Below are positions 1,752 to 55,356 of a stretch of 59,881 nucleotides of DNA, in pieces. This stretch comes from a virus. The notes under the pieces were generated by a model. The model saw only the letters and a list, made by a program, of their open reading frames with translations. It did not search any database and was not told the origin of the DNA. Each line of letters starts with the position of its first letter. The first letter of the stretch is position 1. The stretch lies in IMG/VR virus record IMGVR_UViG_3300043958_000214. The stretch is one strand, 5' to 3'. Made by a program: the position numbers and the translations under genes.

Positions 1752-1772
1752 TCCCGCCGCACAAGGAAGAGC

Positions 1773-3107
1773 ATGGGGAGCTACAACGACCAGCAGCCCC
1801 GCTTGCTGGCAGGAGCGCCGGGAGCCGGCAGATGGACTGGCACGCCTCACGCCTGCGACGAGATCGACACCCTCGACACCCCCGCGCCCGACCAGTGGAC
1901 GCCGTATGAGCATGCCAGCGACGTGTGGGCGGACGGGCCCTGGGACATCCGCATCCGCGGGACGCGCGACATGGAGGAGGCGCTCCAGCGTGTCAGTGAG
2001 GCCAATGGGCGCCTCGAACGCGCTGGAATCACCGATCGATTCACCTTGGAGCGCTCACGCCCGCTGAAGCTCATCGAGCACGGGCGCCCTACCACGTCGT
2101 GGATGGTGAGGCTCAACCGGCCCGTCATCTCCTACAAGGGCTGGTCGTTCGCCTCCGAGCTCGAATATGACGCGTCGGGCGCGATCATCTCCCACGCCTC
2201 CGTTCCGGGCCATGTCCCCGACATCATCGAATGCGAACACTGCCACACCTCGATCGCCCGTACGAAGACCTACATGCTCATCCATGAGGACGGCACGGAG
2301 ATCCAGGTGGGATCCACCTGCGTACAGAACTATCTCGGGATCCGGCCCAAAGGATTGTGGAGCCTCGACGCTGCGCTCATCGACGAGTACGGGGTGGACG
2401 AGCCCATCGACGACGCCGAGGAGGACACGAGCTATAGCGCCAGTTTTCCGGTCCTCGGCCGCCAGGACGAGGTGCCGGCCCGCGCCGTCCTCGCTGCCGC
2501 CCTCGACATCACGTCAGGCGGCACGAACTGGGTGAGACGGGAGGACACGCGAGAAGGTGTCGGCACGTCCGACATCGTCAAACAGGAGATCAAGGACTTC
2601 GGCGGACACTGGGAGGACGGCGCGAACGACCCCCGAATTGATGACGTGATCCGGGCTGTCGACGACATGCCGGGCGACACCGAGTACGCCCAGAACCTCA
2701 AGAAACTCGCCCACACCCGGGTCATCTCCTACAAGCACGCAGGCTTGCTGGCGTCAGCAGTCACCGTGTACGCGCGGCGCCGACGCGCAGAGCGTGCCCC
2801 AGCGCCCGCCACGCCGGGCTTCATCGCCGAGGAAGGACAGAAGGTCCCCGAAACCGAGGCGACTGTCATGTCGGTGCACGAGTTCCATGGCTACGACACG
2901 TATAAGCATCGTGAGGCAACGACGCGCATGGTCATCATGCGCGATCCTTCGGGACACGCCATCAAATGGACGACGGGCAGCAGGAACGTCCCCGAAGAGG
3001 GGGCGAGAGTGAGGCTGACCGGCGGGAGGGTGAAGGGCCATGGCAACTACAAGGGTGAGGACCAGAGCGTCGTGACCCGCCGGACGTTTGACCCGATCGA
3101 CGCCTGA
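1773..3107 (+). CDS. Hypothetical phage/plasmid protein with Zn-ribbon (CEHC..VGSTC) and possible C-terminal OB-like domain; divergent leader
   Basis: 444-aa ORF with GC-type codon bias; CCGCACAA-N8-ATG upstream; N-terminus YNDQQPR..GAGRW..H..DEIDTL resembles the shared leader. Confidence 0.7.
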   Translation: MGSYNDQQPRLLAGAPGAGRWTGTPHACDEIDTLDTPAPDQWTPYEHASDVWADGPWDIRIRGTRDMEEALQRVSEANGRLERAGITDRFTLERSRPLKLIEHGRPTTSWMVRLNRPVISYKGWSFASELEYDASGAIISHASVPGHVPDIIECEHCHTSIARTKTYMLIHEDGTEIQVGSTCVQNYLGIRPKGLWSLDAALIDEYGVDEPIDDAEEDTSYSASFPVLGRQDEVPARAVLAAALDITSGGTNWVRREDTREGVGTSDIVKQEIKDFGGHWEDGANDPRIDDVIRAVDDMPGDTEYAQNLKKLAHTRVISYKHAGLLASAVTVYARRRRAERAPAPATPGFIAEEGQKVPETEATVMSVHEFHGYDTYKHREATTRMVIMRDPSGHAIKWTTGSRNVPEEGARVRLTGGRVKGHGNYKGEDQSVVTRRTFDPIDA

Positions 3108-3180
3108 GGGGCGTCGGGTCGGGGCCGCAGCTGGACGAGTGGTTGCGTTCGACGGGTGCCGGTGTCGTGGGCTCCGACGA

Positions 3181-3471
3181 TTACGCTGCCAGGTGCGGAT
3201 ATCGGGAACGGAACTGCTTGTCCCTGAGGACGCCGACGTCTCCGTTTTCGTCGCGGGTCACCCAGTATCCGGGGCGGACCAGGACGTTGCCTGCGGGAGT
3301 GCGGGCCTCGAATACCCTGATGTCGCGCGTCGAGATCTCTGGATCCCGGTACTCGGCGCCCTCCGACCAATCGCGGATGCGCAGAAGCTGGGAGGTGGAC
3401 CCGTCGAAGCGGACCGCCTCGATCGCCTCGCCTTTCAGGCGCAGGAACGTGTTAGACATTGTCGTCCTCAT
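3181..3471 (-). CDS. Small phage-type hypothetical protein (PGDYG-like)
   Basis: EAVRFDG ... PGYWVTRDENGD..RDKQFRSRY pattern typical of a small phage protein family; true start may be MSNTF. Confidence 0.55.
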   Translation of the reverse strand: MRTTMSNTFLRLKGEAIEAVRFDGSTSQLLRIRDWSEGAEYRDPEISTRDIRVFEARTPAGNVLVRPGYWVTRDENGDVGVLRDKQFRSRYPHLAA

Positions 3472-3889
3472 ACTCGGAAGCGATGTAGCGTCGCACCCAT
3501 TCCTCGTTCAGGCGCGGCCCGTATTGCTTAGGGGACTTGACCTTCAACCATTCGCCTCCCTGCCAGGCCACGTAGATCGGGGCGCCCTCGCTCTCGGTCG
3601 TGTAGAACGCGGTCTGTGTCCGAACGGGGCCATGATCTGTCTCGTCGGTAGTGTCGACGAGGAACTTGATACGACCGGCTTTTCCTGCCACCTGACGGAT
3701 GTCATTGGCGCTTCCACACATAGTTGATGCCTCCTTGATGATTCGAGCGGCGAGCGCCCCGCCGGCGATGAGAATTATGGTGAGAGTGGACAGCACTGCC
3801 CACGTCGGCATCGCCTCCGCCGTGAAGATCGCGATCACCGCGCCCGCGAGCAGGAGGCGGAGCGCGACGGGATTCAGGAACTTGCTCAT
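3452..3889 (-). CDS. Small two-TM membrane protein
   Basis: Two hydrophobic helices after MSKFLN; start chosen from TCACAAC-N6-ATG. Confidence 0.6.
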   Translation of the reverse strand: MSKFLNPVALRLLLAGAVIAIFTAEAMPTWAVLSTLTIILIAGGALAARIIKEASTMCGSANDIRQVAGKAGRIKFLVDTTDETDHGPVRTQTAFYTTESEGAPIYVAWQGGEWLKVKSPKQYGPRLNEEWVRRYIASEYEDDNV

Positions 3890-4002: not shown

Positions 4003-4596
4003 TCACCATGCCGCGGTGTCATCGATCGGAGCGGGAACCGTCTGGACGGGGGCCGGGGGCTGCGGCTGGGCGTACCCCTGCTGAGGAGCCTGGACGGGGG
4101 CCTGCGGCTGGGGCTGGGCGTACCCCCGCTGAGGGGCCGGGGCCTGGGGCTGGGCGTACCCCCGCTGAGGAGCCTGCTGGGGCTGGGCGTACCCCTGCTG
4201 AGGGGCCTGGGGGGCGGACGCGCTTTCCGCGCGCTGGTTGCGGGTGACCTGGGCCTTCGCATGACGCATTGAGATACCGACCTCGTCGGCCTGCATCTCC
4301 ACCACGGTGCGGTGTTCGCCCTCGCGGGTCTCATAAGACCGCTGGGAGAGCCGGCCCGAGACGATGACCCGCATGCCCTTGCGGAGGGACTCGGCAACGT
4401 TCTCGGCTTGCTGGCGCCACACGCTGCAGCGCATGAACAGGGTCTCGCCGTCCTTCCACTCATTGGTGGTGCGGTCGAAGGTCCTCGGCGTGGACGCCAC
4501 CGTGAAGTCGGCGACCGCAGCGCCCGCGGGGGTGAAGCGCAGCTCCGGGTCGGCGGTGAGGTTGCCGATGATGGTGATGATGGTCTCTCCAGCCAT
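4003..4596 (-). CDS. ssb: Single-stranded DNA-binding protein
   Basis: [38 protein letters not shown] is the actinobacterial SSB N-terminus; Q/P-rich repeated linker; acidic tail ending DDTAAW. Confidence 0.97.
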
Positions 4597-4909
4597 AGGA
4601 GGGGACCTACCTTTCTGGGCTGCCAGGCGAAGTCCTGGCTCGGTTTCGGGAATGGCGGCTGTTAGGCCGTCATTGGTGTTGTGAGGCAGCCGGTAGGTTC
4701 ATGCACGTCCGACTGCACCGGTAGTGGTGATGTGGGTCACAACTGTGTCGGGAGGCTGGGGCGGGCGGAAGGCCGCCCGCCCCGGGGAACCCCGATCACC
4801 TCCCCGCATTCCAACCCCGGACCCTCCGGAGTCGCTTTGTGTGTGCCACCTGCGAGTCCACAGCGGACACATGTTGGAAACACTCATATGCTCTCGATAT
4901 CAGCGAAAA

Positions 4910-7900
4910 TCACAGGGGGATCGTCCGCCAACATCTCCCTTCGACGTCAAGATCCCCTTTCAGCCAGGACAGCGCGCCCGCCGACGCCTTCTCACCGACG
5001 AAGGCGGGGTGCGCTCCGCCGGGGCCGGGGTGGGCCCACGTCCCCTTGCTCATCAGGTCGACGTCTGCATCCGAGTAGCCGGGGTGGGCGGGGTTGATTG
5101 CGTCCACGTCGGGTCCGAGGCCGCCGATGCTGCGCGGATCACGCCATGGGCGCCGGGCCGGAAGGGCCGCTTCGTCGTTCGCGGACACGTCCAGGGAGTC
5201 GATGGAGTCCGCGACGAGCTCGGTGACTGACGCTTCTTCGGTCACCGTCTCGCCCGTTTCGGTCGTTCGTTCCGTCACCACTTTGCGGATCTGGACGCGC
5301 CCGGTCACGACGACGGGGTACCCGATCCTCGGTTCCGCGCCTCGCTGTTCGAGGGCTTCGAGCGACCTCTGGAACATGATGCCGCCGACCCGGGAGCGGT
5401 CCCTGCCCTCAACCTCGATGCGGGCGAATCTCGACCTCTTCCCCGTGCGCTTCTCGAATCCCGTCAGGATTCCGACGACGCGAAGGGTGTCGCGGTCGTG
5501 GGCGTCGTGGAGGCGAGAGGGGCCGACCAGTGGTGGCATCGAGGTCACGCCCAGGCTCCGGAAGTAGCCGTCGTTGTCGCGGATCAGGTCGAGGATTGCG
5601 GCGTGCTGGGAGGCCATGGGGTGCTCCCCCATCGTCACTCCCAGCCGCAGGCGTTGACGGAGGTCCCGCTCGAAGGGCCCCCATTCGGCGGGGATCCTCA
5701 GCTCGGGTTCGAGGCGCGCCACCCGGGCCTCCATCGCCATGCCGAGGCGCGTCCCGCCGAGGGAGTCGAGGGCTCCCGCCTCGATGAGTCCTTGGACGTC
5801 TCCGGTGGTGAGGACCTTGTTGTTGACGCGGTCCATGAGGTCGGTCAGGGAGGTGAACGGCCCGCGCGCCTCCCGCTCAGCGATGATCTCCTTGGCTGCG
5901 GCGCCGACGCCCTTGATCTCGCCGAGGCCGAACCGCACCGTGTTGGAGCCGTCCGGCGCGGTCTTGAACTGGGAGGAGTTGACGTCCGGGGCCAGGATGG
6001 TGATGCCTTCGGCTGTCAGGGATCGGAGGATCTCCGACCTTTTGTCGTCTCTTCCGGTGTGGGCGAGGACGGCGGCGGCGAACGCGGCGGGCCAGTTGCC
6101 TTTCATGTAGGCGGTCTGGTAGGCGACGTACCCGTATCCGCACGCATGTGACTTGTTGAACAAGTATGAGGCTGAGGCTTCGAACGTGGTCCACAGTTTG
6201 TCCAGAGTCGACTGCTGGAACGGGGTGCGGGTCGGATTGTCGCCTGCGAGCGCGCCCGCGAACATCACCTCCTTGACTTGGGCCATCAGCTCGGCCTTCT
6301 TCTTGGAGAACGCTTTGCGCAGCTTGTTCGTGTATCCGCCGTCTAGACCTCCGATCGCGGTCCCCAGTTGCATGATCTGCTCCTGGTAGACGATTGTTCC
6401 GAACGTGGGGTCCAGGACGGAGGCGATGATCCTCTGCTCGGCGGGGTTGGTTGTCAGGTAGTCGTAGGAGACTGGGTCGCGCCCGTTCTTCCGGTCCGCG
6501 TACAAGGTGTGCATGCCCGCGGCCATCGGCCCGGGCCGGTAGAGGGCGACGAGGGCCGTGAGGTCGTCCCAGGAGTCCGGCTGGACGTTCATGGCGAGGT
6601 CGCGCATGCCCGAGGATGAGAGTTGGAAGATGCCCTCGGTCCGCCCCTCGCAGATCGTGCGGAAAGCCTCACGATCCCGCCGGATCGCCTCCGGGCTTGA
6701 CGTGTCTCCGGGGACGACATGAGCGATGTCCACTCGCTCGCCCGTGGTCTGTTCCACGTAGTCGGACGTGAGGTGGAGGATGTCGAGCGTGATCAGGCCG
6801 AGGACGTCGAGTTTGAGGAGCCCGTAGGCGTCGAGGTCGCCGCCCTCCCATCCGATGACGCGAGGCGCTCCCTCGACGACCTTGCCCTTCTTGCGTTCGT
6901 AGTACATCGGGACGAGGGAGTCGAGCGGCTCGTCGGAGATGATGGTGGCGCAGGCGTGCGTGGAGTTGTTGCGCACCACGTCCTCCAGTGTCCGGGCGAT
7001 CGAAATGAGCCGATCCCCATCTTCTCCCATGGTGGAGAGCTGGCGTCGGAATGGCTCACCGAGCGCGAAGCCCGGATCGAGGACGTCCGACAGTGGTGCG
7101 GGCTTGCCCTGGTTGACCGGGATCGCTGACGCGAGCTTCTCTCCTTGGGAGTCCAAGTTCAGCGTCCTAGCCGCGTCCTTGATGGCGCCCCGCGACTTGT
7201 CCAGTCCGAATGTCCCGACGCGGGCCACCACGTCTGCCCCGTACCTGACGGTCAGGTAGTGGAGGATCTCTTGGCGGCGTTCCTTCTCGAAATCTGTGTC
7301 GATGTCGGGGAGGCCGATGCGGGACGGGTCGAGGAAGCGTTCGAAGAGAAGCCCGTGGGCGAGGGGGTCGAGCCGGGTGATGCCGAGGACGTAGGCCGCG
7401 CATGACCCGCCTGCGCTTCCGCGACCGGGTCCCGTCCAGATCGGTTTCTTCTGCCCGGGCTTGCCCTGCGGGTACTCCGGGCAGGGGTATCCGCGCTCCG
7501 AGTTCGCCCACTCGATGAGGTCGCGCAGGATGAGGAAGTAGTCGGCGGTTCCAGCGCCGTTGATCACCTTCTCCTCCCATGCCATCCGCTGGGCGATATC
7601 GCGTCGAAGATGGCCTGGGCGCGCAGGGTCATCGCCGTACTTCTCGAGCGCTCCGGCTTTCAACAAGTCATGGAAGTACGTCTTCGAGTCCTCGTATCCC
7701 TCGGGGAGGGGGAACTTGGGGAGACGCTGGTGCGGGGCCGGCATCAGGTCGCCGTCCTCGTGTCCGGCCTCCTGGGCCGAGCGCCGGATCCGCAGGGCGA
7801 GCCGGTACGTGGCATCGCACGCTTCCTGCCACCAGTCCTCGTCGTGGAGGACGCGCATCTCAGCCCCCGTGCGGTAGTAGTACCCCTCCCCGTTGAAGGT

Positions 7901-8707
7901 GAAGCGCTTGTCATCGTCGAGGGTCTTCCCCGTCGACACGCACAGCCACGCCTCGTGGGCCAGGTGGTCTTCGGCGTCAGTGAAGTGGTTGTCATTGGTG
8001 ACAACCATCGGGAGATCGAACTCGGCGGACAGGCGGCGCATCCCATCGAGGATCCGGACCTCGGCGTCGATCTCGTGATCCATGACCTCGATGTAGACGC
8101 TATCGTGGCCCACCGCCTCGATCAGTGATTCGATCCCGCGGCGCGCACCCTCAATATCTCCCTGGGACAGTGGGCCAGCCACCGGCCCTCCCAGGCACCC
8201 GGTCAGGACGATGAGGCCCTTCCCGTGCTCCTTGAGAAGCGGGTAGTCGATGAGCGGGTGATAGCGGTAGGTATCCTCAGCCGCGTTCATCATGGAGATC
8301 AGGTTCGCGAAACCCTCCGGCGTCTCCGCCAGCACCGTCAGGTGATAGTAGGACTTCGTCTTAGTCTTCGTGTCCACGGGAGCCGACCGGGGTTGTCGAC
8401 CTGCTCCCTGGTTGCGCTTGAGGTCCTCAGGGTTCGCCTCCGAGACGTCTTCCTTGACGTCGAGCGTCTGAGGATCATGGCGTGAACCGATCGCGAGGTA
8501 GGCCTCGCAGCCGTAGATCGGCATGACACCGGCCGCACCGGCCGCCTTGTGCAGGTTGTACCAGCCGTTGAGAGACCCATGATCGGTGATGGCGACCGCC
8601 GGCGCGCCGTCATCTTTCGCCCTCCTCACGAGGTCCCTCACACGTGTCAGCCCGTCGAGCGGGCTATGCTCCGTATGGACGTGAAGGTGGATGAAGGGAA
8701 GCGTCAT
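4910..8707 (-). CDS. dnaE: DNA polymerase III alpha subunit
   Basis: PHP motifs HLHVHTEHSPLDG, AITDHG, TNDNH; GRGSAGGS; catalytic PDIDTD; LLKLDVLGL; FNKSHA; start MTLPF chosen from GGCACACA-N6-ATG. Confidence 0.96.
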   Translation of the reverse strand: MTLPFIHLHVHTEHSPLDGLTRVRDLVRRAKDDGAPAVAITDHGSLNGWYNLHKAAGAAGVMPIYGCEAYLAIGSRHDPQTLDVKEDVSEANPEDLKRNQGAGRQPRSAPVDTKTKTKSYYHLTVLAETPEGFANLISMMNAAEDTYRYHPLIDYPLLKEHGKGLIVLTGCLGGPVAGPLSQGDIEGARRGIESLIEAVGHDSVYIEVMDHEIDAEVRILDGMRRLSAEFDLPMVVTNDNHFTDAEDHLAHEAWLCVSTGKTLDDDKRFTFNGEGYYYRTGAEMRVLHDEDWWQEACDATYRLALRIRRSAQEAGHEDGDLMPAPHQRLPKFPLPEGYEDSKTYFHDLLKAGALEKYGDDPARPGHLRRDIAQRMAWEEKVINGAGTADYFLILRDLIEWANSERGYPCPEYPQGKPGQKKPIWTGPGRGSAGGSCAAYVLGITRLDPLAHGLLFERFLDPSRIGLPDIDTDFEKERRQEILHYLTVRYGADVVARVGTFGLDKSRGAIKDAARTLNLDSQGEKLASAIPVNQGKPAPLSDVLDPGFALGEPFRRQLSTMGEDGDRLISIARTLEDVVRNNSTHACATIISDEPLDSLVPMYYERKKGKVVEGAPRVIGWEGGDLDAYGLLKLDVLGLITLDILHLTSDYVEQTTGERVDIAHVVPGDTSSPEAIRRDREAFRTICEGRTEGIFQLSSSGMRDLAMNVQPDSWDDLTALVALYRPGPMAAGMHTLYADRKNGRDPVSYDYLTTNPAEQRIIASVLDPTFGTIVYQEQIMQLGTAIGGLDGGYTNKLRKAFSKKKAELMAQVKEVMFAGALAGDNPTRTPFQQSTLDKLWTTFEASASYLFNKSHACGYGYVAYQTAYMKGNWPAAFAAAVLAHTGRDDKRSEILRSLTAEGITILAPDVNSSQFKTAPDGSNTVRFGLGEIKGVGAAAKEIIAEREARGPFTSLTDLMDRVNNKVLTTGDVQGLIEAGALDSLGGTRLGMAMEARVARLEPELRIPAEWGPFERDLRQRLRLGVTMGEHPMASQHAAILDLIRDNDGYFRSLGVTSMPPLVGPSRLHDAHDRDTLRVVGILTGFEKRTGKRSRFARIEVEGRDRSRVGGIMFQRSLEALEQRGAEPRIGYPVVVTGRVQIRKVVTERTTETGETVTEEASVTELVADSIDSLDVSANDEAALPARRPWRDPRSIGGLGPDVDAINPAHPGYSDADVDLMSKGTWAHPGPGGAHPAFVGEKASAGALSWLKGDLDVEGRCWRTIPL

Positions 8708-8773
8708 ACCATGTGTGTGCCGCAAGACCGCGAAACAGCGAACAACGCCGCCGACCTCCGCATATGTGGGGCT

Positions 8774-12817: not shown

Positions 12818-13002
12818 GGTCCCTCCTCACGATGGGTGACTACGCCCATTAATGCGGAGGGGACTATTCGAGGACGCGCTCGCGGGCGACTCGTGGGGGT
12901 ATCGTCGTCGCAGCTACGTACCCACGCCAAGATCCGTATCGCGCATGTGCTCGAGTCAGCGCCGATCTTCGGCGACTCGGTTCAAACTGAGGAGGACCGG
13001 TA

Positions 13003-17969: not shown

Positions 17970-18111
17970 GATGAGCCTGTTTCCTTTCAGGAGCGTCCGG
18001 CTGGTGCCAGACCGTCACACCCACTAATGCGGAGGGCCCCGGAGAAGGGGACGCCCCGCACGGGGCCTGTCAGAACTCCTTGTGCGGGGCGTCCCCTTCT
18101 CCCAGAGTCGC

Positions 18112-19485
18112 TCAGATGCCGAGAGCCTCCATCGACCGCCTGTTGCGCACCGAAGCGATGGCTGTCGCCGAGCTCCACAGGCTCTCAGCTGCCCGCGGGT
18201 TGCGGATCAGCACGGCAACGATCGCTTCCCTGTCGGCATCAGCGTGGATCTCGTAGGGAGCGAAGAGGGCTCGGGTCGCGGACCCACGATCCCCGTCCTC
18301 CCACTGTTGGGCGAGAACGGCGGGCCCACCCGCCTCCGCGACCTCCTTGCGCAGCTTCGTGGCCTCACCCGAGGAGATGGAGGCACGCGCGGCCAGTGGG
18401 GCGTCGGACTGTTCGGCGAGCGCGTTCCACGCGATCATGTTCGCCATCCTCTTCGCCACGGTTGGCTTCTCCGCCTCCGGGGACGTGAGCCGGTAGACCG
18501 CCTGGCTCCACTTATCGGTTTCCTCCCCGGAATGGGTCGTGGAGTAGTCGAGGAAGTTGGGGCGGGGCCGGGCCGGATCACCCGGGCGCCAGTGTGAGAT
18601 CACGCGGGAGGCGACATGACGGCGTTCCGCGTCGGTGAGGTCGCGTCCCAGCTTCGCGCTGGCCTGGTCGACGATTGTGGCGTAGACCTCCGCCGCCCGG
18701 CGTTCGGCCATGATGCGGCTTCTGCGGTGCGTCTCCACGTGAAGCAGGCGCCCGCTGCCGTTACTCGTGCCATCAAGGCCGATCGCGCCGACAAGACCAA
18801 GCTGGTCTGCTGCGCCGATATCCTCGTGGAACCGCCCATCCACGGACTTATGGAAATTCACGGAGGGTTTCCGCTTCTGGCGGTCCCACGTCTGCCTGAT
18901 CTCGCTGGCGAGCGCGTCGCGTTCGCGGTTCGTGATCTTGCGTCCGTGCTCCTGTTCGAACGCTGTCACTTGGTCGGCGAGCATCCGTCCGGCGATCTGA
19001 TCCGCGGAGGACTCCCGGCTTCCACGCAGGCGTTCCGCGATGCAGCGTTTGACGACTCCCCCGACGAAGTCGCCGGAACTGCGGATGGGCGACCTGTCAC
19101 CGGTCGACTTCTTCGCGCGCTGGTAGAGGCGCTGCATGACGTCCTGCGTGATGTCGTCTTCGAGACCTTCGAGGTGAAGCTCGGCGCCGCCTCCCCGGGA
19201 GAGGTATCCGCCGTCCTCAGCGAAGACGCCGCGGTGGCGGAGCATCCTGCGGGCAGTCTCCTTGGCGTAGAGGCGGACGGCTTCGGAGTCATGCTCGGAG
19301 TTCAGGTCGATCTCGTCCCAGGGCGGGAGCTTCCACATCGTGCCGGTCAGGACGTATCCGTCATCGTCTTCGGGGAGAGCATCGAGATCGACGCCTTCCG
19401 CTTCCGCGTAGTCCTTCGTGCTGTACTGCCCGACGTTGGCCGGGTTTTCCCCGCGCACGTGCTTGGTTTCGTCGTAGCCGCTCAT
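18112..19485 (-). CDS. Leader-tagged sigma-70-like protein (regions 2 and 3, no obvious region 4)
   Basis: Leader MSGYDETKHVRGENPANVGQYSTKDYAEAEGVDL; EDDITQDVMQRLY..FVGGVVKRCIAERLR resembles region 2; FEQEHGRKITNRE and SAKLGRDLTDAE resemble region 3 LGRxPTxxE. Confidence 0.55.
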   Translation of the reverse strand: MSGYDETKHVRGENPANVGQYSTKDYAEAEGVDLDALPEDDDGYVLTGTMWKLPPWDEIDLNSEHDSEAVRLYAKETARRMLRHRGVFAEDGGYLSRGGGAELHLEGLEDDITQDVMQRLYQRAKKSTGDRSPIRSSGDFVGGVVKRCIAERLRGSRESSADQIAGRMLADQVTAFEQEHGRKITNRERDALASEIRQTWDRQKRKPSVNFHKSVDGRFHEDIGAADQLGLVGAIGLDGTSNGSGRLLHVETHRRSRIMAERRAAEVYATIVDQASAKLGRDLTDAERRHVASRVISHWRPGDPARPRPNFLDYSTTHSGEETDKWSQAVYRLTSPEAEKPTVAKRMANMIAWNALAEQSDAPLAARASISSGEATKLRKEVAEAGGPAVLAQQWEDGDRGSATRALFAPYEIHADADREAIVAVLIRNPRAAESLWSSATAIASVRNRRSMEALGI

Positions 19486-19555
19486 GACATTTCTTGTGCG
19501 GTAGAAACCCGCTACATGACGTGAAACCCGCCACAACTCGATGCGTTCTGGGAGG

Positions 19556-19843: not shown

Positions 19844-19859
19844 AAGAGCATGTGTGCGG

Positions 19860-22085: not shown

Positions 22086-22106
22086 ACCCTTCCTTGTGCG
22101 GGCGAA

Positions 22107-23855
22107 TCACGCGTACATGGACGCCCCCAGGCGCATGGAGGACTGAGAGAGCTTGTCGTGTGCGGACGCGATCGCCGCACCGTCCCCCGCGTCTATGGCC
22201 GCGCGCAGGGCATCGAGATCCCGCTGGACTTCCTCGCGGAGGTCCTGCGGCGCGGACGCCTGGGTGTCTCGCAGGAGTTTCCCCGCGGAGTAGGCGGCGC
22301 CTTCCGCCCGGGAGCGGGTTTCCGCCTCCTCCAGGCGCGCCCGATCCTCGGCGGCGTGCTCTTCGGCCTCCCTGGTCATCCGGTCGATTTCCGCCTTGGG
22401 AAGACCGGACCCGCCGGTGACCTTCACGTGGCGTTCAGCCTCGGTGGCCTTGTCGCGCGCCGAGACGGAGACGATTCCGTTGACGTCGATCTCGAAAGTG
22501 ACCTCGATCTGCGGGACGCCGCGCGGGGCAGGCGGGATGCCTGTGAGTTCGAAGTCCCCGAGCAGCTTGTTGTCTCGGGTCATGGGGCGCTCGCCCTGGT
22601 AGATCTGGAGGAAGACGGAGTCCTGCCCGTCATCGGCGGTGGAGAAGACCTGGCTGGCGCGCGCAGGGATCTGCGTGTTACGAGGGATGACGACAGCCAT
22701 CTGCCCACCGGAGGTCTCGATACCGAGGCTCAAAGGCGTGACGTCGACGAGAATGACGTCGCGGCGCGCCCCCGAGACGACGCCGCCCTGCAGGGCGGCC
22801 CCCACGGCGACGACCTCGTCGGGGTTGACTCCCCGGCTGGGTTCCTTCCCCGCCAGTTTCTCGACGAGGTCGGCGACCGCGGGCATGCGGGTGGACCCGC
22901 CGACGAGGACCACGTGGTCGATGTCAAAGACCGCGACGTTCCCGTCGCGCAGAGCCTGCTCGAAGGGGGCGCGGGTGCGTTCAAGCAAGTCGGAGGTCAT
23001 ATCCTCGAACTGGGCGCGGGACAGTGCTTCGTCGACGTGGACGGGTCCGGAGGGCCCGGCGCCGACATATTGCAGGGAGATCCTGGTCGACGTGGCGTTG
23101 GAGAGTTCCTTCTTCGCCTGCTCGGCCGCCTCCTTGAGGCGGGACATGGCGACGGGGTCGCTGGAGAGGTCGACCCCGGTCTTGGACTTCACCTGGCCAA
23201 CCAGCCAGTCGACGACGCGCTGGTCCCAGTCATCGCCGCCGAGGCGGTTGTCGCCGGCGGTGGCGATCACCTGAATCGCGGAGAACCCGTCGTCGTCCTT
23301 GCCGACCTCAAGGAGAGACACATCGAAAGTGCCGCCACCCAGGTCGTAGACGAGGATCCTCTCGTCCTGCTTCGCCTTGCCGAGCCCGTAGGCCAGGGCG
23401 GCCGCGGTGGGCTCGTTGACGATGCGCTGGACGTCGAGGCCGGCGATCTGGCCGGCGTCCTTCGTGGCCTGGCGCTGCGCGTCGTTGAAGTAGGCGGGGA
23501 CGGTGATGACCGCGTCGGTGACGGGCTCGCCCAGGTAGGCCTCCGCGTCCCGCTTGAGCTTCATGAGGATCTGCGCGGAGATCTCGGGGGCCGTCCACCG
23601 CTTCCCCGCGGCTTCGGCCGCCCACGACGGGTCCCCCATGCGCCGTTTCACGGAGATCACGGTGCCGGACGGGTTCGTGGCCGCCTGGCGCCGCGCGGTC
23701 TCCCCCACCACGATCGAGCCGTCCGCGTCGTAAGCCACAACGCTGGGGGTGGTCCGGGCTCCTTCCGCGTTCACCAGAACCTCCGGTTCATCCCCGGAGA
23801 GAATCGCCATGCAGCTATTCGTCGTACCCAAGTCGATGCCGAGCGTTCGTCCCAT
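22107..23855 (-). CDS. dnaK: Hsp70 chaperone DnaK (C-terminal tail short)
   Basis: [63 protein letters not shown]. Confidence 0.97.
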
Positions 23856-23883
23856 GGCCCCACCTATGCGGAGGGGGCGGCAC

Positions 23884-25200
23884 TCACGCATGGACGGTGG
23901 CGAGTTCGGCCCAATGGGTGGTGGCCCGGTTGGAGAGCATGTCGCGGCGCATCTGCCAGTCAGGCGGATGTTTCAGGCCGGCGAGGCCAAGCCCGACAGC
24001 GTCACGCCCCAGCGCGGCGTTGACGCGGTCGATGAGGTCCCCGAGCCGGCTCCCGTGCTCGTCGGGCTGGAAGAGGGGCAGCATGGGCTCCGCACCCCGT
24101 TGGGCGAGATCGCTGACGCTGATGCCGGCTCGCACGTACCGGTTCCCGGGGATCATGCGCGGCAGGATCATGCGGGTGGCCGCCCTCATCACGGAGACCG
24201 GGTCATCGGTGCGCTCCGGGAGGGCGGCGGCCTCCCCGATCTGGTGAAATGCCTGAGAGCGGTCATGCCAACTGGTGGCGGCGAACGCGTACACGCTCCC
24301 CGCCACCGACCCCTGCTGGCGTAGGCGCCGTGTCACGTTCTGCGCGTAGATGCTGAGGACCTGGTGCATGGCCTCGGTGCCGGTCACCGGGGTGGAGAAG
24401 GACCGGGAGAACATGACTTGTCCGCGCCTTTGCGAGTCCCGTTCCTCGATCTCGATACAAGGCGTGCCCCGAAGCTCCAGGACCGTGCGCTCCACGTTGA
24501 CGGAGAACCTGCGGCGCATCGCCATCGCGTCGGCGTCACGCAACTGGCGGGCTGTCACGATCCCCAGGTCTTCAAGCCGGGCGCACAGGCGCCGTCCGAT
24601 CCCCCACAAGTCCCCCACCGGCGTCGCCGTGAGAATAGCGTCGAGGCGCTCAGGCCCATAGGCGTCCAGGCTCGCCACTCCCCCAAGGCCCCTCGAGCGC
24701 TTGGCCCCATGGCTGGCGAGCTTGGCGAGCGTGCGGGTCGGCGCGATACCCACGGAGACGGGGATGCCCAGGTCGTGGCGGACCCTCTCCCGGATCGCCC
24801 GCGCCTCGCCCACAAGGCCCTGCGGAGAGCCGTGCAGACGCAGGAACGCCTCATCAATGCTGTACACCTCCACGGCGGGAGTGAAACCGCCCAGGATCTC
24901 CATGATCCGCCGTGAGATAGACCCGTAAAGCTCGTAGTTGCTGGACCGGGCGACCACGCCCATCCTCTCGGCCTGCGCGCGGATCTTGAACCACGGCACG
25001 CCCATCTCGATGCCGAGAGCCTTCGCCTCGCGGCTCCTGGCGACCACGCACCCGTCGTTGTTCGACAAGACCACGATCGGGCGCCCTTCCAGCTCAGGAT
25101 GGAAGACGCGCTCGCAAGCGGCGAAACAAGAATCCACGTCGACGAGGGCGAACCGGCTCACCGGTGCAGGTGATGCAGGCACGTCGTCACCACCCCCCAC
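23884..25200 (-). CDS. umuC: Y-family DNA polymerase V catalytic subunit
   Basis: [53 protein letters not shown]; start may be slightly downstream. Confidence 0.93.
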
Positions 25201-25589
25201 ACGGTCAGGTCTTCGGGGCGCAGGACGGGGTACGCCGGGTTCTCTGGGCGCAGCTCGGGCTCGTCCGCTGTCAGGTTCAGGCGCTTCACTGTCATCTCCC
25301 CTTCGACGACAGCGATCACGATGTCCCCGTCCGCCGGGTCGAGGGAGCGGTCGACCACCAGCTCATCGCCGTCACTGATCCCCGCCCCCACCATGGAGTC
25401 CCCCACTACCCTGACCACGAACGTGGCCGGCCTGTTTCGAATGAGGTGCTCATTCAGGTCCAGGTCACCCGAAAAATAGTCCTGGGCAGGGCTCGGCCAC
25501 CCTGCAGGCACCGCCTCCCCACCCACTGGGATGGAGGCCACTGCGGTGAGGGGCGCAACGGGCCGCACCGAATCCACGAGGTCGAACAT
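25158..25589 (-). CDS. umuD: UmuD-like S24 autopeptidase
   Basis: [32 protein letters not shown]; start MFDL. Confidence 0.92.
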
Positions 25590-28678: not shown

Positions 28679-28804
28679 GATTTCTCTTCTCGATCGGTCC
28701 CACAGCGAGTTGCGGGGACCGTATTGTGTGCGGGGCAGCCCAGCAGTCTACGGATAGGTGGCGAGCAAAGATACGACCTGCGGACCTCGCGTGTGTGCCG
28801 CCTG

Positions 28805-37177: not shown

Positions 37178-37211
37178 GTCTCTCCTTGTGCGGCTGGGCG
37201 CGCCGAGTGCG

Positions 37212-38466: not shown

Positions 38467-38627
38467 ATCCGCGGTTGTGCGGCTGGTGTGCGCGGACGGT
38501 CGTTCACCCCGACATAAGTGCATATCCATTCGCTTGTATGAGTGATTATGCAGTGGATCAACGGGGTTCCAGCGGGCCTCGCCGTGTGTGAGCCGTGGGG
38601 GTGTGGGGGCGTGTCCCGCCTGCCCAC

Positions 38628-40486: not shown

Positions 40487-40986
40487 TTTTCCTTCTTTCA
40501 GGAGTGGACATCGCGAAAGTGATTCCAACGAATGAGAGCCATGAGACATTTCGGGTTGATTCTCCCCTATATAGGGGGAACTTCTGGGAGAGACCTCGAC
40601 CTAAGTATGGCTGGAATTTGGACGCGTATCATCTGGAGAATTGTGCAGATGTCACTCAAGCGCCTTTGCGGGCTTTTGGAGAAGCCCGAGGTCGACGATT
40701 TCAGCTATTTGTAATACAGTGAGCAATCGAAGGAATCGGATACGCTCGTCTGTCTCTATGGGGACGATCCCAATAGAGAGACGAATTCCTGATCTGGGCT
40801 GTTCGGTACCTTGTGCGGCGGGCAGCTCAATCTGTCCGGGTTACCCTAGACGGGAATGCTCGTTTTGGGGTTACAGCAAAAGGGCTGTAATGTTGACAAT
40901 TTGCAACACTTTTCATACAGCAGTCGAGCCCGCTGTACGGACACCCCCGTTATCGGAAGAGGCTGTATCCCGGGCGTTGTAGGCGT

Positions 40987-41883: not shown

Positions 41884-41950
41884 GACTCTCCTTTTGCGGC
41901 GGTCGCCAAGGTTCGCCTGTCCACGCCGGCGGCGCGCCTAGTCAGGCTTT

Positions 41951-43036: not shown

Positions 43037-43059
43037 GACTCTCCTTGTGCGGCGTGTAC

Positions 43060-43863: not shown

Positions 43864-44328
43864 ACCCCGTCTTGTGCGGCGCAGATCGATTCGAGAGACT
43901 CAATCGCCTCGCACGGCAGCAACCCTAGAGAGGAAGTCGTCCCTGGCATCCTCGTCGAACCACCGGACGTTCGCCTCCATGTCCTCTAGCCGATCCGCGA
44001 AGTACGTCAACTCCCGTCGGACCAGCTCCGCGTCAGGACGTTCAGAGGCGGCGCTGAGAAGGATGTTGCTCGAGAGCCCATCGAACGCATCGAGTCCAGA
44101 CCCCCCGAGCAATTCTGCCGCGTCGTGGGCGGCCTGCAGTCGTTCGACCATCGCGCGACGATCCTCAGCAGTCATCACCTCACGTTCGCGGGTACCCGGC
44201 CCGATGCCAAGCTCCACCCCCTCCGCGTCGGCGTGGTCCTTCGCGCTGTACTGCCCGACATTGGCGGGGTTCTTCCCGCGTGGGTGCAAGGTCTCGTCGT
44301 AAGTACTCATACCCCGTCTTGTGCGGCG
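43765..44328. repeat. 117-nt perfect direct repeat (43765-43881 and 44212-44328) covering box + leader
   Basis: Base-by-base identity from CTCCACCCCC to TTGTGCGGCG; sequences diverge immediately outside. Confidence 0.9.
43900..44310 (-). CDS. Leader-tagged hypothetical protein (array unit 4)
   Basis: Same leader as unit 5, unrelated short helical body. Confidence 0.8.
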   Translation of the reverse strand: MSTYDETLHPRGKNPANVGQYSAKDHADAEGVELGIGPGTREREVMTAEDRRAMVERLQAAHDAAELLGGSGLDAFDGLSSNILLSAASERPDAELVRRELTYFADRLEDMEANVRWFDEDARDDFLSRVAAVRGD

Positions 44329-45359: not shown

Positions 45360-45409
45360 ACCCCGTCTTGTGCGGGGATGGACGCCGGAAGGCCCGTGAG
45401 AGACCAGTC

Positions 45410-45844: not shown

Positions 45845-45888
45845 ACTTCCCCTTGTGCGGCGGGCACGGGCTGTCCGGTGTCCGCCGT

Positions 45889-46725
45889 CTAGAACGATCG
45901 CGCGACCTGGCACAGCCGCTTAGCCTCAGCGTCGGTAATCACCGAGTACTCGGAGAACCCGTTGTAGCCGCTCTTTCGGCACCGGTACAGCGCGAGTCCC
46001 CAGTCCGAAGCCGACAGCGGTAGGCGGTCGAGGACCTCTCCAGCACGCTCGTAGAACTTCGCGGAAAGCCGGGTTGCGTGGGCCATCGCGGCGTCTGTGG
46101 GTGTTTCGCACCCTGCGCGTTCGGCTTCCGCGACCGCGTACATGGTCCCCGCCTCGACGTTTGCATCGTCGACGCTCTCACAGCGGAATGCGAGGCGTTC
46201 ACCCAGCGATGCCGCCGGCTTCGACATCTCATCATTGAGGGGCCGGACACGGTTCTCGAGCATCCAGTCGAGGTCCTTGTCCAGGCTCATCCCCGTCGGG
46301 AAGACCGTGGTGTGGGCGTATGCCTCGAACCCTTCTTGAGGGGCCTTCTCGAGCCCGTAGAGGGATTGAAGAAGCCGACTGATGGTGTTGCGATGCGCCG
46401 CCACATAGGCCGCACCACGGCCCTTGTCCGTCAAACCCGCACGCTCCACGGCGGTGGGGGCACCCACGTCATACACGACAGTGACGGTCGTAGCGCCGTC
46501 ATTCGCCCGCTCGGCGTGAAGACCCTTGACGAAGGTCAAGTCGTCCCACCTGAGCAGGCCGGCCGTGAGATCCAAGCTCCCGCCGCGCTCGATCAGCGCA
46601 CCCTCAAGAGAGGACGGGGTCGCGAGCTCCAGGTCGCGGTCGTCTGCGTACCCCTTTCGGCTGTACTGGCCGATGTTGTCGGGGTTCCCGCCACGCTGAT
46701 GCTTCGACTCGTCGTAGATGCTCAC
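45889..46725 (-). CDS. Leader-tagged hypothetical protein (array unit 1), paralog of 40987..41883
   Basis: MSIYDESKHQRGGNPDNIGQYSRKGYADDRDLEL; CCGCACAA-N8-GTG. Confidence 0.8.
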   Translation of the reverse strand: MSIYDESKHQRGGNPDNIGQYSRKGYADDRDLELATPSSLEGALIERGGSLDLTAGLLRWDDLTFVKGLHAERANDGATTVTVVYDVGAPTAVERAGLTDKGRGAAYVAAHRNTISRLLQSLYGLEKAPQEGFEAYAHTTVFPTGMSLDKDLDWMLENRVRPLNDEMSKPAASLGERLAFRCESVDDANVEAGTMYAVAEAERAGCETPTDAAMAHATRLSAKFYERAGEVLDRLPLSASDWGLALYRCRKSGYNGFSEYSVITDAEAKRLCQVARSF

Positions 46726-47286
46726 ACCTCTCCTTGTGCGGCGGGCACAGGGTGCTGGGTGAATGTCGTCTAGAACGATCGCACGACCGCGCGTCTTCGG
46801 TGGCGGGTCTGGACATTCCGAGGTTCACGTCCTAGCCACGAGGCGCGTCGCTCACTAACGCCATTATGCGGGATAGGCCACGACCTGTGGCACTTTCAAC
46901 GTTCTGGCCGGACACCGAGAGCTTCAAAACCGCACCGGTTTCAGCCTACAGAAGGCCCTGAAGACCGCGCACCCCCCCCCCCAATGGCATCACCCTGCGG
47001 ATGCCGGGTTAAACACGCGCCGACCCCACCGAAATCCTCCATACCTCACCAGCCTCATGACAGCCCACATACCTGACTGCAGACCGAACTAACTTGAAAC
47101 AAGCCGGGTGTAACCCTCGAACCGTTACTTCCTCAGGCAAGCGAAGAAGGGTGGGGGCCTCGAATCTCTTCCCGGCTGGTGGAGATCGCCAAGACCAGGG
47201 TCTCGTGCTAAAGGTTCCCGATTCAAGAGGGGCATTAGTCTAGATCCTCAATATAATTGATTCATATTAGCGCCATTCGTCGATTC

Positions 47287-51387: not shown

Positions 51388-51395
<8 letters not shown>

Positions 51396-53705: not shown

Positions 53706-54027
53706 CGGCCCCTATTCCTCGTCTTCCGCTCGGCGTTCAACTCAGGATAGGAGTCCCCGCCATCATTTCCATTCGCTTCATCGCAAACGGCGAGTCAGGT
53801 TGGACGACGATCTCTCGTGACCGGACCTCACATGGAACAAGGACGACTTGCGACTGTGCCTTACTAAGTACCTGCTATTTCGTCGCAACCATGCGGCATC
53901 CGACACGGAGAGCCACGTCCACCGACGTGTCACACACCCGGCCCGCACCCCCTTGGCTCCCGGTTTTCTTGATACTCAATCGATCCTAGACACACGGGAG
54001 CAAAGGTCGAACGAACCGTCTACGTCT

Positions 54028-54306
54028 TCACGCGGCGTCGAGCGCAGCGTGTAGCGCCTCCATGTTCTGGAAGTCCAGAGTGGTATCCCCGCACCGTAAG
54101 CGGAGTGCCCCGCCGCCTTTCGGCGCCGGGCCGTGGTCGGGCTGTTCGATGACGCGGTCCACGCACTCGACGGGGACTCCCGCGTCCTCGATGCCGAGGA
54201 GGCGGCGAGCTGCAGCTTGGGATGCGGCGTCAAGGGGGTGGCCGAGAGTGAACAGCTGTCCCCCGCCGGGTTCTGGCACGAGGACCTTTCCGATGTTCGG
54301 GTTCAT
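54028..54306 (-). CDS. Small hypothetical protein
   Basis: CCACAAC-N6-ATG; ATGA overlap with the upstream gene. Confidence 0.55.
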   Translation of the reverse strand: MNPNIGKVLVPEPGGGQLFTLGHPLDAASQAAARRLLGIEDAGVPVECVDRVIEQPDHGPAPKGGGALRLRCGDTTLDFQNMEALHAALDAA

Positions 54307-55013
54307 GCCTGTGTTGTGGGACACGAACGAAGCTCACGCGTCGGATGTGCGGGCTCGAGGAGTGTGATGGAGTCGGAGGGCTTGCTCCATCCTCCAAAGG
54401 TCTCCCACGCCCGGGTGTCGTCTTCATCCCCCCTGGTCTCCCAGTCGTCCTGGGTCCGGTCCCAGGCGCTGGCAAGACGGTTCAAAACGATCCGCGGGTC
54501 TCCTGAGACGTGGATCGCGTCGGTTGCTTCGTTCTCGCCTTTGCCCTGCTCGGCGACGGTGATGTCGGTGGATCCGGTAGTCTTGTCGAAGACGATGGAA
54601 ACCCGGAGGTCATGTGTGACGTTGTCGATCTGAGCGGCGGGCACGCTCTTGTCGTTGGCGACTAGTGTCGCGTCGCACAGGCCCTGCCCGACGGCGTGGA
54701 AGTCCGCCGGTGTCCCAGGGAAGGGGACTCGCCCGGTAGAGGAATGAACGCGCCCGTCGGGCGTGCGCACGCTGGTGACCAAGGTGGCGTCCCCTGGCGC
54801 GTCGAAGCAGACGTCGAGATTCCGCTCATTGCCGGTTGCGCGGATCGACACGCAGGTATTGTGCCCGTCGTCGGTGACCATGAGGTGGGAGGAATCCACA
54901 GGGGCCGCGCCGAGTTCGACCTCCTCCGGCTCAGCATGGTCTTTCGGGCTGTACTGGCCGGTGTTCGCGAGGTTCTTTCCCCGCGGGTGCTTGGCCTCGT
55001 CGTAGACGTTCAT
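54303..55013 (-). CDS. Leader-tagged hypothetical protein
   Basis: MNVYDEAKHPRGKNLANTGQYSPKDHAEPEEVEL; CCGCACAA-N8-ATG with no SD. Confidence 0.8.
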   Translation of the reverse strand: MNVYDEAKHPRGKNLANTGQYSPKDHAEPEEVELGAAPVDSSHLMVTDDGHNTCVSIRATGNERNLDVCFDAPGDATLVTSVRTPDGRVHSSTGRVPFPGTPADFHAVGQGLCDATLVANDKSVPAAQIDNVTHDLRVSIVFDKTTGSTDITVAEQGKGENEATDAIHVSGDPRIVLNRLASAWDRTQDDWETRGDEDDTRAWETFGGWSKPSDSITLLEPAHPTRELRSCPTTQA

Positions 55014-55356
55014 GTCGATTCTTGTGCGGCTGGTTCAATTTCACTGAACGACAACGAACTGATACGATTTCTCTTTGTTGAGCACCGATCGTTAGTAATG
55101 CTCAGCGTCTTCGATGATCGACCTCAGGCCACGAACACGATGCTAGTTGGCCTCTCCCCCACCGCCATGCGCACGCCCGGCGGTCGCTGCCCGCTCACAC
55201 AGTCCTTCCACCTCACCTTTGTCGAGATGGGCTTTCCTCTTCGCCTTGGTCCTACGCGCCAGGCGGCGGATCCTGCTTTTCGCGGTCACCGGGCCTCAAC
55301 TCGTCCTGATTCCATGCCCCCACCTATGCGGAGGGGTTCCCCGCACACAAGGAGGC

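Follow-up and report, generated by a model that had tools for sequence, protein, structure and literature searches.

A candidate leaderless promoter element, CCGCACA(A/C), restricted to a family of large plasmid-like elements in actinobacteria

Phages and the plasmid pBS32 provide known examples of mobile elements that bring a sigma factor and a promoter code of their own. The late promoters of phage T4 are read by gp55 and consist of an 8-bp element at -10 without a -35; sigma-28 (FliA/WhiG) promoters follow the pattern TAAA-N15-GCCGATAA; the stoperators of Cluster A mycobacteriophages are asymmetric sites at variable intergenic positions that are bound by the element's repressor; and a pyrimidine at -1 followed by a purine at +1 is typical of transcription initiation. 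The T4 late motif is quoted as TATAAATA (PMC1524935). In Bacillus subtilis the sigma factor SigN (ZpdN), encoded by pBS32, drives plasmid genes as well as its own gene (PMC6751061). About one third of actinobacterial mRNAs are leaderless, with AUG preferred, and in the leaderless sigma-A promoters of C. glutamicum the start site coincides with the start codon, ~7 nt downstream of the TAnnnT hexamer (PMC3890552). Cluster K mycobacteriophages carry Start-Associated Sequences (SAS), which are proposed start-adjacent repeats (PMC3203893).

The window analysed here is the whole 59,881-nt stretch of IMG/VR record IMGVR_UViG_3300043958_000214, for which a sequence-only reading had described a single promoter-like box at a fixed distance from 17 start codons. 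The position and spacing hold, as an 8-mer CCGCA(C/T/A)AN ends exactly 8 nt 5' of the start at all 17 (16 ATG and one GTG), and a conserved -35 is absent upstream, as had been claimed; two motifs had been pooled, however. Class A is CCGCACA(A/C), for example CCGCACAA, with semi-conserved flanking bases (G before, G/A after) and 15 sites next to starts. Class B is a 17-mer, CCTCCGCAT(A/T)nrTGGGn (for example CCTCCGCATAGGTGGGG), with five sites in the window, three followed by an ATG after 2 nt and two located 43-66 nt upstream of tra operon starts. The pattern CCGCAHA-N9-RTG has 20 matches, the 17 starts all among them, against 0.61 +/- 0.78 expected from 100 dinucleotide shuffles (shuffle maximum 3). 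Among the window sites the box is invariant, the 8-nt spacer and all further upstream sequence vary, and the box is better conserved than the neighbouring spacer and coding sequence. Position -1 is a pyrimidine at 17 of 17 sites. Positions -13 to -8 read CACAAG or CACACA, never with T in the last place, so that this hexamer does not conform to TANNNT. GGAG-like words occur in about half of the window spacers; they may contribute as ribosome-binding sites and could be used by read-through transcripts. The observation that several spacers have no Shine-Dalgarno (SD) sequence is borne out, since four of them are without any.

Fourteen of the 17 box genes are paralogs with a common ~34-aa N-terminal tag and near-identical first ~100 coding bases. 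On the plus strand, class A boxes stand 8 nt before ATG 1773 (444 aa, degenerate tag; CCGCACAA at 1757..1764) and ATG 55357 (557 aa, tagged; CCGCACAC at 55341..55348). All other class A boxes are on the minus strand, where CCGCACAA at 19494..19501 is 8 nt before ATG 19485 of the tagged, 457-aa candidate sigma-like protein, CCGCACAC at 19852..19859 is 8 nt before ATG 19843 of an untagged 95-aa membrane protein (both spacers SD-less), and CCGCACAA at 22094..22101 is 8 nt before ATG 22085 of a tagged ArdC-like protein. At the same distance from tagged genes are the boxes at 37186..37193 (ATG 37177, 323 aa), 38475..38482 (ATG 38466, 279 aa; spacer CCGCGGAT without SD), 41892..41899 (the variant CCGCAAAA; ATG 41883, 298 aa), 43045..43052 (ATG 43036, 361 aa; upstream stop codon 23 nt away), 43872..43879 (ATG 43863, 267 aa), 44319..44326 (ATG 44310, 136 aa), 45368..45375 (ATG 45359, 336 aa), 45853..45860 (ATG 45844, 144 aa), 46734..46741 (GTG 46725, 278 aa, the first gene of the tandem array) and 55022..55029 (ATG 55013, 236 aa; spacer GAATCGAC without SD). 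The tandem same-strand array genes have no terminators between them and gaps down to 23 nt, and three array members share identical spacers. A consensus scan of 36-55.5 kb of the window, including the sequence before the array genes, finds no sigma-70-type promoters above chance.

Three class A boxes away from starts had been overlooked. One, CCGCACAC at 28726..28733 (-), precedes the start of nrdD (28678) by 47 nt and exemplifies leadered use; intergenic window boxes that precede a gene do so at distances of 8, 32, 47 and 55 nt. The second, 18080..18087 (-), lies within the 5' arm of a GC-rich hairpin directly after the stop of the candidate factor gene, and the third, cccgCCGCACAAgg at 40811..40818 (-), has no nearby start codon and is followed by an inverted repeat. 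Neither of these two has an obvious promoter role, and the orphan may drive a non-coding or long-leader RNA. The class B sites are CCTCCGCATATGTGGGG at 8755..8771 (+), 2 nt before ATG 8774 (313 aa, untagged); CCTCCGCATAGGTGGGG at 23858..23874 (-), 2 nt before ATG 23855 of an Hsp70/DnaK-like protein (582 aa); 55318..55334 (-), likewise overlooked, 2 nt before ATG 55315 of an ORF of only 9 codons; CCTCCGCATTAATGGGC at 12844..12860 (-), 43 nt upstream of position 12817, where the SLT/NlpC-P60 (tra) gene starts, an SD lying in between; and CCTCCGCATTAGTGGGT at 18019..18035 (-), after the hairpin and 66 nt before ATG 17969 of the first gene of the tra block. The last two are the CCTCCGCATTA variants that had been reported near 12855 and 18030, and both are present there.

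Although all 17 sites exist, the 5' ends of the paralogs are not independent instances as had been supposed, and since most window sites are such ends the strongest statistics come from a relative rather than from this element. The plasmid pPA-B-2242 of a cultured Pseudarthrobacter strain (sp. BIM B-2242) shares box and spacing with the window, before tagged and untagged genes alike. It holds 183 occurrences of CCG(C/T)ACACA, 83 copies of GCCGCACACA against 0 for the reversed control, and CCGCACACAT as its commonest 10-mer. The next good start is 7-10 nt away at 104 sites, 11-21 nt away at none, 22-60 nt away at 38 and more than 60 nt away at 17, so that on this related plasmid the distances are bimodal, falling into one class of 7-10 nt and another of 22 nt or more. 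In the 7-10 nt group the -1 base is C at 93 and T at 8 of the 104 sites (pyrimidine 101/104), and ATG is the start codon at 100 of them, whereas 31 of the 51 leadered sites use it. Some 80 of these 104 box genes with leaderless geometry are untagged. Boxes also occur 20-33 nt after terminator hairpins with no TANNNT between, and others head tRNA/tmRNA clusters or divergent units. The purine run in the pPA-B-2242 spacers ends 1-2 nt from the ATG, which is too close for a normal SD.

Comparison with L042, a syntenic relative with ~45% protein identity, gives a footprint of the box. At five orthologous sites the box is identical at 38 of 40 positions, against 53 of 150 in the upstream and 63 of 150 in the downstream flanks (35-42%), and the conservation holds at an untagged gene too. 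The L042 ortholog of the 19843 gene has its box at 8 nt with a wholly different spacer; that of 18112..19485 retains the box, yet 56 nt before the start; nrdD has a box upstream there as well. The hairpin box after the stop of the candidate factor gene is repeated in L042, and a 26-nt block is conserved there at the class B site 18019..18035. More widely, relatives whose proteins are 25-47% identical keep the box at orthologous sites. This pattern indicates that the box is selected for itself and conserved independently of its flanks.

The box is also >100-fold enriched on the elements relative to host chromosomes. In seven Micrococcaceae genomes the box 10-mer occurs 3-12 times, which is the control level, and counts of 69-100 are reached in exactly 3 of 301 genomes, those with a homolog of the 18112..19485 product; the box is found as well in a small island of an Arthrobacter chromosome. 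Judged by these counts, the box is private to related large plasmid-like elements of actinobacteria, and its absence from host chromosomes makes the housekeeping sigma-A an unlikely reader.

We propose that CCGCACA(A/C) is the core -10-like element of a leaderless promoter class private to these elements, probably read by host core RNA polymerase together with a specificity factor that the element encodes, and we consider this explanation likely. RNA polymerase would open the DNA at the CACA(A/C)(A/G) hexamer, at about -13 to -8, and begin transcription 8-9 nt past the 8-mer, which in the window coincides with the A of ATG, to give a leaderless mRNA; a start site at the ATG would fix the distance between box and start and make an SD optional. 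Genes that need a leader (nrdD, the tra operons and many genes of the relatives) would have the box at least 22 nt upstream, followed by a normal SD. A promoter of this kind, non-TANNNT and starting at the ATG, predicts the distance bimodality, the -1 pyrimidine, the ATG bias and the placement after terminators and before tRNA clusters. From conservation, geometry and privacy we infer that transcription starts at the ATG and that the mRNAs are leaderless. Class B (CCTCCGCATAGGTGGGG), with the same geometry and a longer conserved sequence, may form a promoter class of its own or may be this promoter with an operator superimposed. The sequence-only reading is supported in part: comparative geometry, footprint and privacy are as a non-TANNNT -10-like promoter with leaderless mRNAs would predict, and the element-encoded sigma is a candidate. 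Its count took paralogous ends as independent and pooled the motif classes.

Among the described systems, the leaderless sigma-A promoters are similar in that the hexamer ends 6-8 nt before the ATG, without a 5' UTR, with an ATG bias and with a weak or absent -35, but the box is CACA(A/C)(A/G) with a CCG extension instead of TANNNT and is absent from host chromosomes. An assignment to sigma-A was rejected on the hexamer and on the lack of sigma-70-type sites before the array genes; with neither TANNNT nor a conserved -35 the box is not a sigma-A -10, so that an element-encoded specificity factor is probable. The sigma-28 promoters also have a long GC-rich -10 that begins with GCCG and has an A-rich end ~8 nt before the start site; this assignment was rejected because there is no TAAA -35 or other conserved upstream element and the core is CACA, not ATAA. 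The sole FliA-like sigma of pPA-B-2242 is encoded within a flagellar gene cluster, and no T7-type or beta-subunit RNA polymerase gene was found on that plasmid. SigN of pBS32 offers a parallel in that a large plasmid encodes a sigma factor which drives plasmid genes and its own gene; here the gene of the candidate factor bears the box. SigN differs in being a recognisable sigma with few targets, whereas here more than 100 promoters per element are predicted, the transcripts are expected to be leaderless and the candidate factor goes undetected by standard profiles. T4 late promoters resemble the box in their 8-10 bp near -10, the lack of a conserved -35 and their restriction to a mobile genome, and gp55, a truncated, divergent sigma-like protein working with the host core polymerase, is matched here by a candidate; sequence, host phylum and genome type differ, as does the predicted leaderless state of the transcripts.

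The window's best candidate for the specificity factor is the product of 18112..19485 (-), an all-helical backbone protein of 457 aa that bears the tag; the gene of this putative factor itself carries the box. It has no significant Pfam, NCBIfam or PDB sequence match. In two homologs Sigma70_r2 is the top Pfam match, below threshold (E 0.0044 and 0.0061; 17.2 and 16.8 bits, the cut-off being 24), and hhalign profile-profile comparison with five sigma factors is not significant (E 0.39). The AF2 model is of low confidence (mean pLDDT 54.6). With it, Foldseek gives sigma factors as top matches (E 0.13-4), and VIA-align of residues 54-182 gives ShbA (Z 8.8), SigC region 2 (Z 7.7; 79 of 88 residues at 2.8 A) and BldN (Z 7.4), with sigma factors in about 40 of 50 rows and sigma region-2 neighbours spanning Z 6-8.8, values that helical proteins can attain by chance. 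Residues 241-318 of the same low-confidence model show a weak likeness to a winged-helix domain. The box precedes the gene in every examined homolog, and such co-occurrence would be expected of any backbone gene. These signals are weak but convergent and point to a divergent, sigma region-2-like protein as the candidate. A more speculative version, which we consider unlikely, is that a new and very divergent sigma-like factor reads a -10-only CACA box and, bearing the N-terminal tag of putative transferred proteins, would be delivered together with the DNA in conjugation, so that in the recipient more than 100 leaderless genes for establishment and anti-defence would be switched on ahead of any expression from the element, as a self-priming private transcription programme.

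The box might instead be the operator of an element-encoded repressor or activator, overlapping a weak or unrecognised promoter. Its asymmetry and orientation would fit a site comparable to the Cluster A stoperators, the motif being short, intergenic, element-private and oriented with transcription; class B is conserved over 17-26 nt, long enough for a protein-binding site, and gene-specific additional motifs adjoin some boxes. The exact 8-9 nt to the ATG, the empty 11-21 nt interval, the -1 pyrimidine and the ATG bias are not predicted by an operator, and no other conserved promoter-like element lies near the boxes, some of which follow terminators by 20-33 nt. We therefore regard an operator as quite unlikely.

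A translation-initiation signal in the mRNA (an extended ribosome-binding site, a standby site or a site for a translation factor) is very unlikely. The box does stand directly before mostly ATG starts, often with GGAG-like spacers and in operon-like tandem arrays with gaps down to 23 nt, and SASs are distributed similarly (PMC3203893), being private, asymmetric, one-orientation repeats that host genomes lack and that lie a few bases upstream of non-structural genes, most of which start with ATG. SASs, however, have the SD core AGGAG and occur at starts only, whereas the box lacks this core, lies upstream of the SD position, is found 22-190 nt from leadered starts that have their own SD and before tRNA/tmRNA clusters, and is joined to SD-less spacers at four window sites and, on pPA-B-2242, to a purine run too near the ATG for an SD. 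After terminators there is moreover no space for another promoter that would put the box into RNA.

In another reading, which is extremely improbable, box, spacer and tag form a gene-front module kept by recent duplication or gene conversion; the box would then simply be its 5' boundary, perhaps acting as a homology arm in the exchange of gene bodies, and would have no role of its own in expression. The near-identical fronts of the 14 paralogs and the three identical spacers would suit such a module, but the box is better conserved than the adjacent coding sequence and spacer, and it occurs at untagged genes, including about 80 of the 104 on pPA-B-2242, as well as at orthologous sites of relatives that share 25-47% protein identity; the L042 footprint and the untagged box genes largely refute it. 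Cleavage of polycistronic RNA before each ATG by an element-encoded endoribonuclease is just as improbable: it would fit the terminator-free tandem genes, the ACA within the box and, through its leaderless products, the ATG preference, but boxes that directly follow terminators or lead divergent units require a promoter anyway, the -1 pyrimidine and +1 purine are typical of initiation, and no nuclease candidate was found.

In the searchable literature we found no description of a family of plasmids in which 100-180 genes are driven by a leaderless promoter that has neither TANNNT nor a -35. The leaderless promoter proposed here is directly testable, as related plasmids of culturable soil bacteria carry the box in more than 100 copies. 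If confirmed, it would provide an orthogonal promoter/factor pair for high-GC hosts and would point to a sigma-like family overlooked by current profiles. For large actinobacterial plasmids it would also supply a sequence rule by which gene starts could be corrected and transcription units read, and it would explain how the expression of these elements is insulated from that of their hosts.

The sequence-only reading had placed an 8-mer exactly 8 nt before 17 named start codons, and this geometry holds at 17/17 of them; 16 are ATG and one is GTG, each opens an ORF of 95-582 aa, and position -1 is a pyrimidine at all 17. In the window the core CCGCAYA occurs 30 times against 15 expected, and the spaced pattern CCGCAHA-N9-RTG 20 times against 0.61 expected (maximum 3 in 100 shuffles). 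The spacers GAAATGTC, CCGCGGAT, GAATCGAC and ATGCTCTT do lack a Shine-Dalgarno (SD) word, as described, and column conservation is at background immediately upstream of the box, so the absence of a conserved -35 is borne out as well. The treatment of the 17 sites as one motif has to be revised for the starts 8774 and 23855, which carry a longer motif, CCTCCGCATAGGTGGGG (class B), separate from the class A box CCGCACA(A/C) and by sequence also present at 55315. The motif variants reported before the tra genes prove to be class B copies 43 and 66 nt before two tra-block starts, one of them directly after a terminator-like hairpin; at both leadered tra sites, class B predicts a purine at +1 and a T at -1. 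Immediately behind the stop codon of gene 18112-19485 (-) lies a GC-rich hairpin whose 5' arm includes an exact CCGCACAA (window 18040-18100 (-); 11350-11400 in L042, a syntenic metagenomic relative); the class B motif of the tra operon comes next in both the window and L042.

A second CACA-type box, whose core lies one base closer to the ATG, occurs as GGCACACA-N6-ATG at 8707, 10431, 10759 and 30193 and as CYCACAAC-N6-ATG at 3889, 54306 and 57289, in every case on the minus strand. The genes behind this set belong to DNA metabolism (DnaE-like, RuvC-like and YqaJ, all three preceded by the GGCACACA form) or are small; a loose pattern is matched 7 times where 0.96 would be expected, and five of these matches belong to the seven listed starts. 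It is probably of the same promoter family as class A. Away from start codons, class A boxes are found 47 nt before nrdD and within the hairpin after 18112-19485. An orphan copy at 40811-40818 (-) has no gene nearby; after it comes an inverted repeat, imperfect, of CGTCTCTCTATTGGG and CCCATAGAGACAGACG (40700-40818). Coding signal is poor around it, at 38.5-40.9 kb, and the segment could encode a small RNA or represent a decayed gene. Searches of the window for tRNAs and Rfam families found none. Beyond the box, the first two array genes have a further 45 nt or so of upstream sequence in common (45861-45905 and 46742-46790 (-)), including CGATCGTTCTAGACG with two small palindromes, which is either a duplicated operator or just part of a longer duplication.

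The 17 sites are not independent, because 14 of the box genes are paralogs in which unrelated bodies, one of them ArdC-like, stand behind a common N-terminal tag of about 34 aa (MSTYDEtKHPRGxNPxNVGQYSxKDHAEPEgVEL); one more paralog (P0004) runs past the window end. The tag, with the core DExKHPRG..GQF/Y..K.HAE, begins about 15 unrelated window proteins (1773-57030) and many small proteins elsewhere, and its 20-residue core is repeated 3-8 times within giant proteins of 1000-3200 aa (P0009, P0016 and others), a distribution that points to a modular motif for docking or processing in proteins of the polyvalent type. A profile search with the tag in a library of 1.8 billion proteins returned about 200 proteins, and a locus search with it in genome and metagenome contigs found no loci. 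Contigs of four other tag subfamilies have boxes at equivalent positions, in the forms CCGCGTACATAG-N5-ATG, GAACATATAGAAGAT-ATG and CCGCACAAGAACAAG, the last 25-35 nt upstream of strong SDs (CCGCCTACA, the box of a promoter-plus-tag module, is a lead outside the present evidence).

Several comparisons show that the box is selected for itself. The 8-mer is invariant in 12/14 paralogs while the spacer varies freely, and it is kept by distant paralogs with diverged coding 5' ends (1773, 22085, 38466 and 55357). At five orthologous places in L042, where protein identity to the window is about 45%, 38/40 box bases are identical, against 35% identity in the 30-nt upstream flanks and 42% in the downstream ones. 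An untagged membrane protein of 90-95 aa keeps the box in L042 with a completely different spacer, and the L042 ortholog of 18112-19485 has its start codon 56 nt downstream of the box, so the box can occur without the tag and is not strictly bound to the start codon. Near-identical copies of the element differ at position -1 of the 95-aa gene, which is T in the copy at 12243 of locus L001 (spacer atgctctt) and C in that at window 19843 (spacer atgctctc); it remains a pyrimidine, and the box is identical.

The richest statistics come from pPA-B-2242 (NZ_CP061722.1), a 417-kb plasmid of the cultured strain Pseudarthrobacter sp. BIM B-2242 that was matched by tblastn of the tag. This plasmid carries 41 tRNA genes, tmRNA, nrdF and a flagellar gene cluster and is typed as non-mobilizable in PLSDB. 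It contains CCGCACA-N9-RTG 31 times and GCCGCACACA 83 times, the reversed controls giving 0, and its commonest 10-mer overall is CCGCACACAT. For all 183 CCG(C/T)ACACA sites the distance was taken to the next ORF start whose GC3 is coding-like: 104 lay at 7-10 nt, none at 11-21 nt, 38 at 22-60 nt and 17 at over 60 nt; the remaining 24 (15 at 0-6 nt, 9 lacking a start) mostly reflect start calls that are ambiguous. Among the sites at 7-10 nt the -1 base is C in 93/104 and T in 8/104, and the start is ATG in 100/104, compared with 31/51 first starts for the sites at 22-60 nt. The tag is found in only about 20-27 of the 104 genes at short distance, so the box serves the plasmid as a signal in general. 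Boxes also stand 20-33 nt after terminator hairpins, with no TANNNT in between, and head the tRNA/tmRNA clusters.

The promoter part of the earlier proposal is well supported by this comparative evidence: we consider it likely, with fairly good confidence, that the box is a promoter. It would act as a -10-like core element, its probable hexamer CACA(A/C)(A/G) at about -13 to -8 and transcription starting 8-9 nt past the box, and most box genes would then yield leaderless mRNAs. What points this way is the fixed distance of 8-9 nt, the empty 11-21 nt interval, the pyrimidine at -1 and purine at +1, the near-exclusive ATG, the optional SD, the sites that follow terminators and those that head tRNA clusters, and the lack of any other conserved element. 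Actinobacteria routinely make and translate leaderless mRNAs, which constitute 33% of those of C. glutamicum, with AUG preferred (PMC3890552). A hidden -35 was sought by k-mer enrichment at 28 pPA-B-2242 sites, which yielded only CATGTGT; this word comes from boxes of divergent genes, read in reverse complement. Pairing with 16S rRNA was considered because CCGCAC is complementary to helix 45 (3' strand), and was rejected by reasoning, since a box located upstream of the SD position rather than downstream cannot extend SD pairing. An inverted box as ssDNA or RNA hairpin partner occurs at only 8/28 sites and is accounted for by divergent promoters.

The promoter reading raises the matter of what recognizes the box. 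Seven Micrococcaceae genomes of 2.7-4.6 Mb contain 3-12 copies of GCCGCACACA each, the control level, against 83 in the 0.42 Mb of pPA-B-2242 and 69-100 in each of three genomes containing such an element; these three are exactly those with an 18112-19485 homolog among 301 sampled Micrococcaceae genomes. This distribution excludes, for these hosts, a host sigma factor with a chromosomal regulon. In the Arthrobacter sp. MPF02 chromosome (NZ_CP176772.1, G001), the one complete chromosome with 12 copies, 7/12 fall within 90 kb at about 1.80-1.89 Mb, four of the seven in the full form CCGCACACAGrrGGGC-ATG, and this stretch resembles a piece of such an element that has integrated in a cultured strain.

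An element-encoded sigma factor, the other part of the earlier proposal, is plausible as the reader, and no recognisable sigma factor is encoded in the window. The 457-aa product of 18112-19485 (-) is a tentative candidate, somewhat less likely than not to be the factor; its homolog on pPA-B-2242 lies at 16.7-17.8 kb on the minus strand. Weak, convergent signals support its being sigma-like: Sigma70_r2 is the top Pfam match, sub-threshold, in two homologs, and of ten structural neighbours in ESM-Atlas five belong to sigma-70 clusters (TM below 0.5). A first AF2 model from 4 sequences was unusable (mean pLDDT 48.5); with a later one from a 7-sequence alignment (mean pLDDT 54.6), most of the top Foldseek matches were sigma factors, with E of 0.13 or higher, and VIA-align placed residues 54-182 on the region-2 domains of sigma factors (ShbA, Z 8.8; M. 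tuberculosis SigC region 2, Z 7.7 over 79/88 residues at 2.8 A). Helical models can reach such values by chance. A profile-profile comparison with sigma factors was not significant, and a profile search against PDB sequences found nothing. The box stands in front of every homolog examined, which would fit autoregulation. Upstream of the gene (window 19502-19545 (-)) are two direct GCGGGTTTC repeats, and TGCGCGTTTT lies about 10 nt before the box in all Micrococcaceae homologs (upstream regions L118, L119, L120 and L073); these may form a gene-specific regulatory site. pPA-B-2242 encodes two recognisable sigma factors, neither retained as the reader. The group 1/2-type (RpoD-like) one at 186 kb, after dut, has a near-canonical region 2.4 and should therefore read TANNNT, and the FliA/WhiG-type one is probably the flagellar sigma factor given its position inside the flagellar cluster. 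No beta-subunit RNA polymerase gene was matched on the plasmid, nor a T7-type RNA polymerase, for which the control search was likewise empty everywhere.

No description of the box motif was found in the literature searched. It resembles leaderless actinobacterial promoters in geometry, pBS32 SigN and phage sigma systems in being private, and T4 late promoters in consisting of a -10 signal alone. The absence of TANNNT rules out a sigma-A promoter; the box is not of the sigma-28 type either, and it behaves differently from Cluster K SASs and, with its fixed distance to the ATG, probably also from Cluster A stoperators. The cargo of the element, which is about 192 kb in size, comprises (4003-8725, 22107-30193 and 57338-57958) SSB, a DnaE-type polymerase, Hsp70, a UmuD/UmuC-like pair, NrdD/NrdG, a YqaJ exonuclease, a GmrSD_C protein, a YobI-type ATPase, an Eco57I-type methylase with helicase and a CasE-like protein, and such replication-, repair- and defence-rich cargo is typical of very large plasmids. 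The promoter reading is directly testable in a cultured strain, Pseudarthrobacter sp. BIM B-2242.
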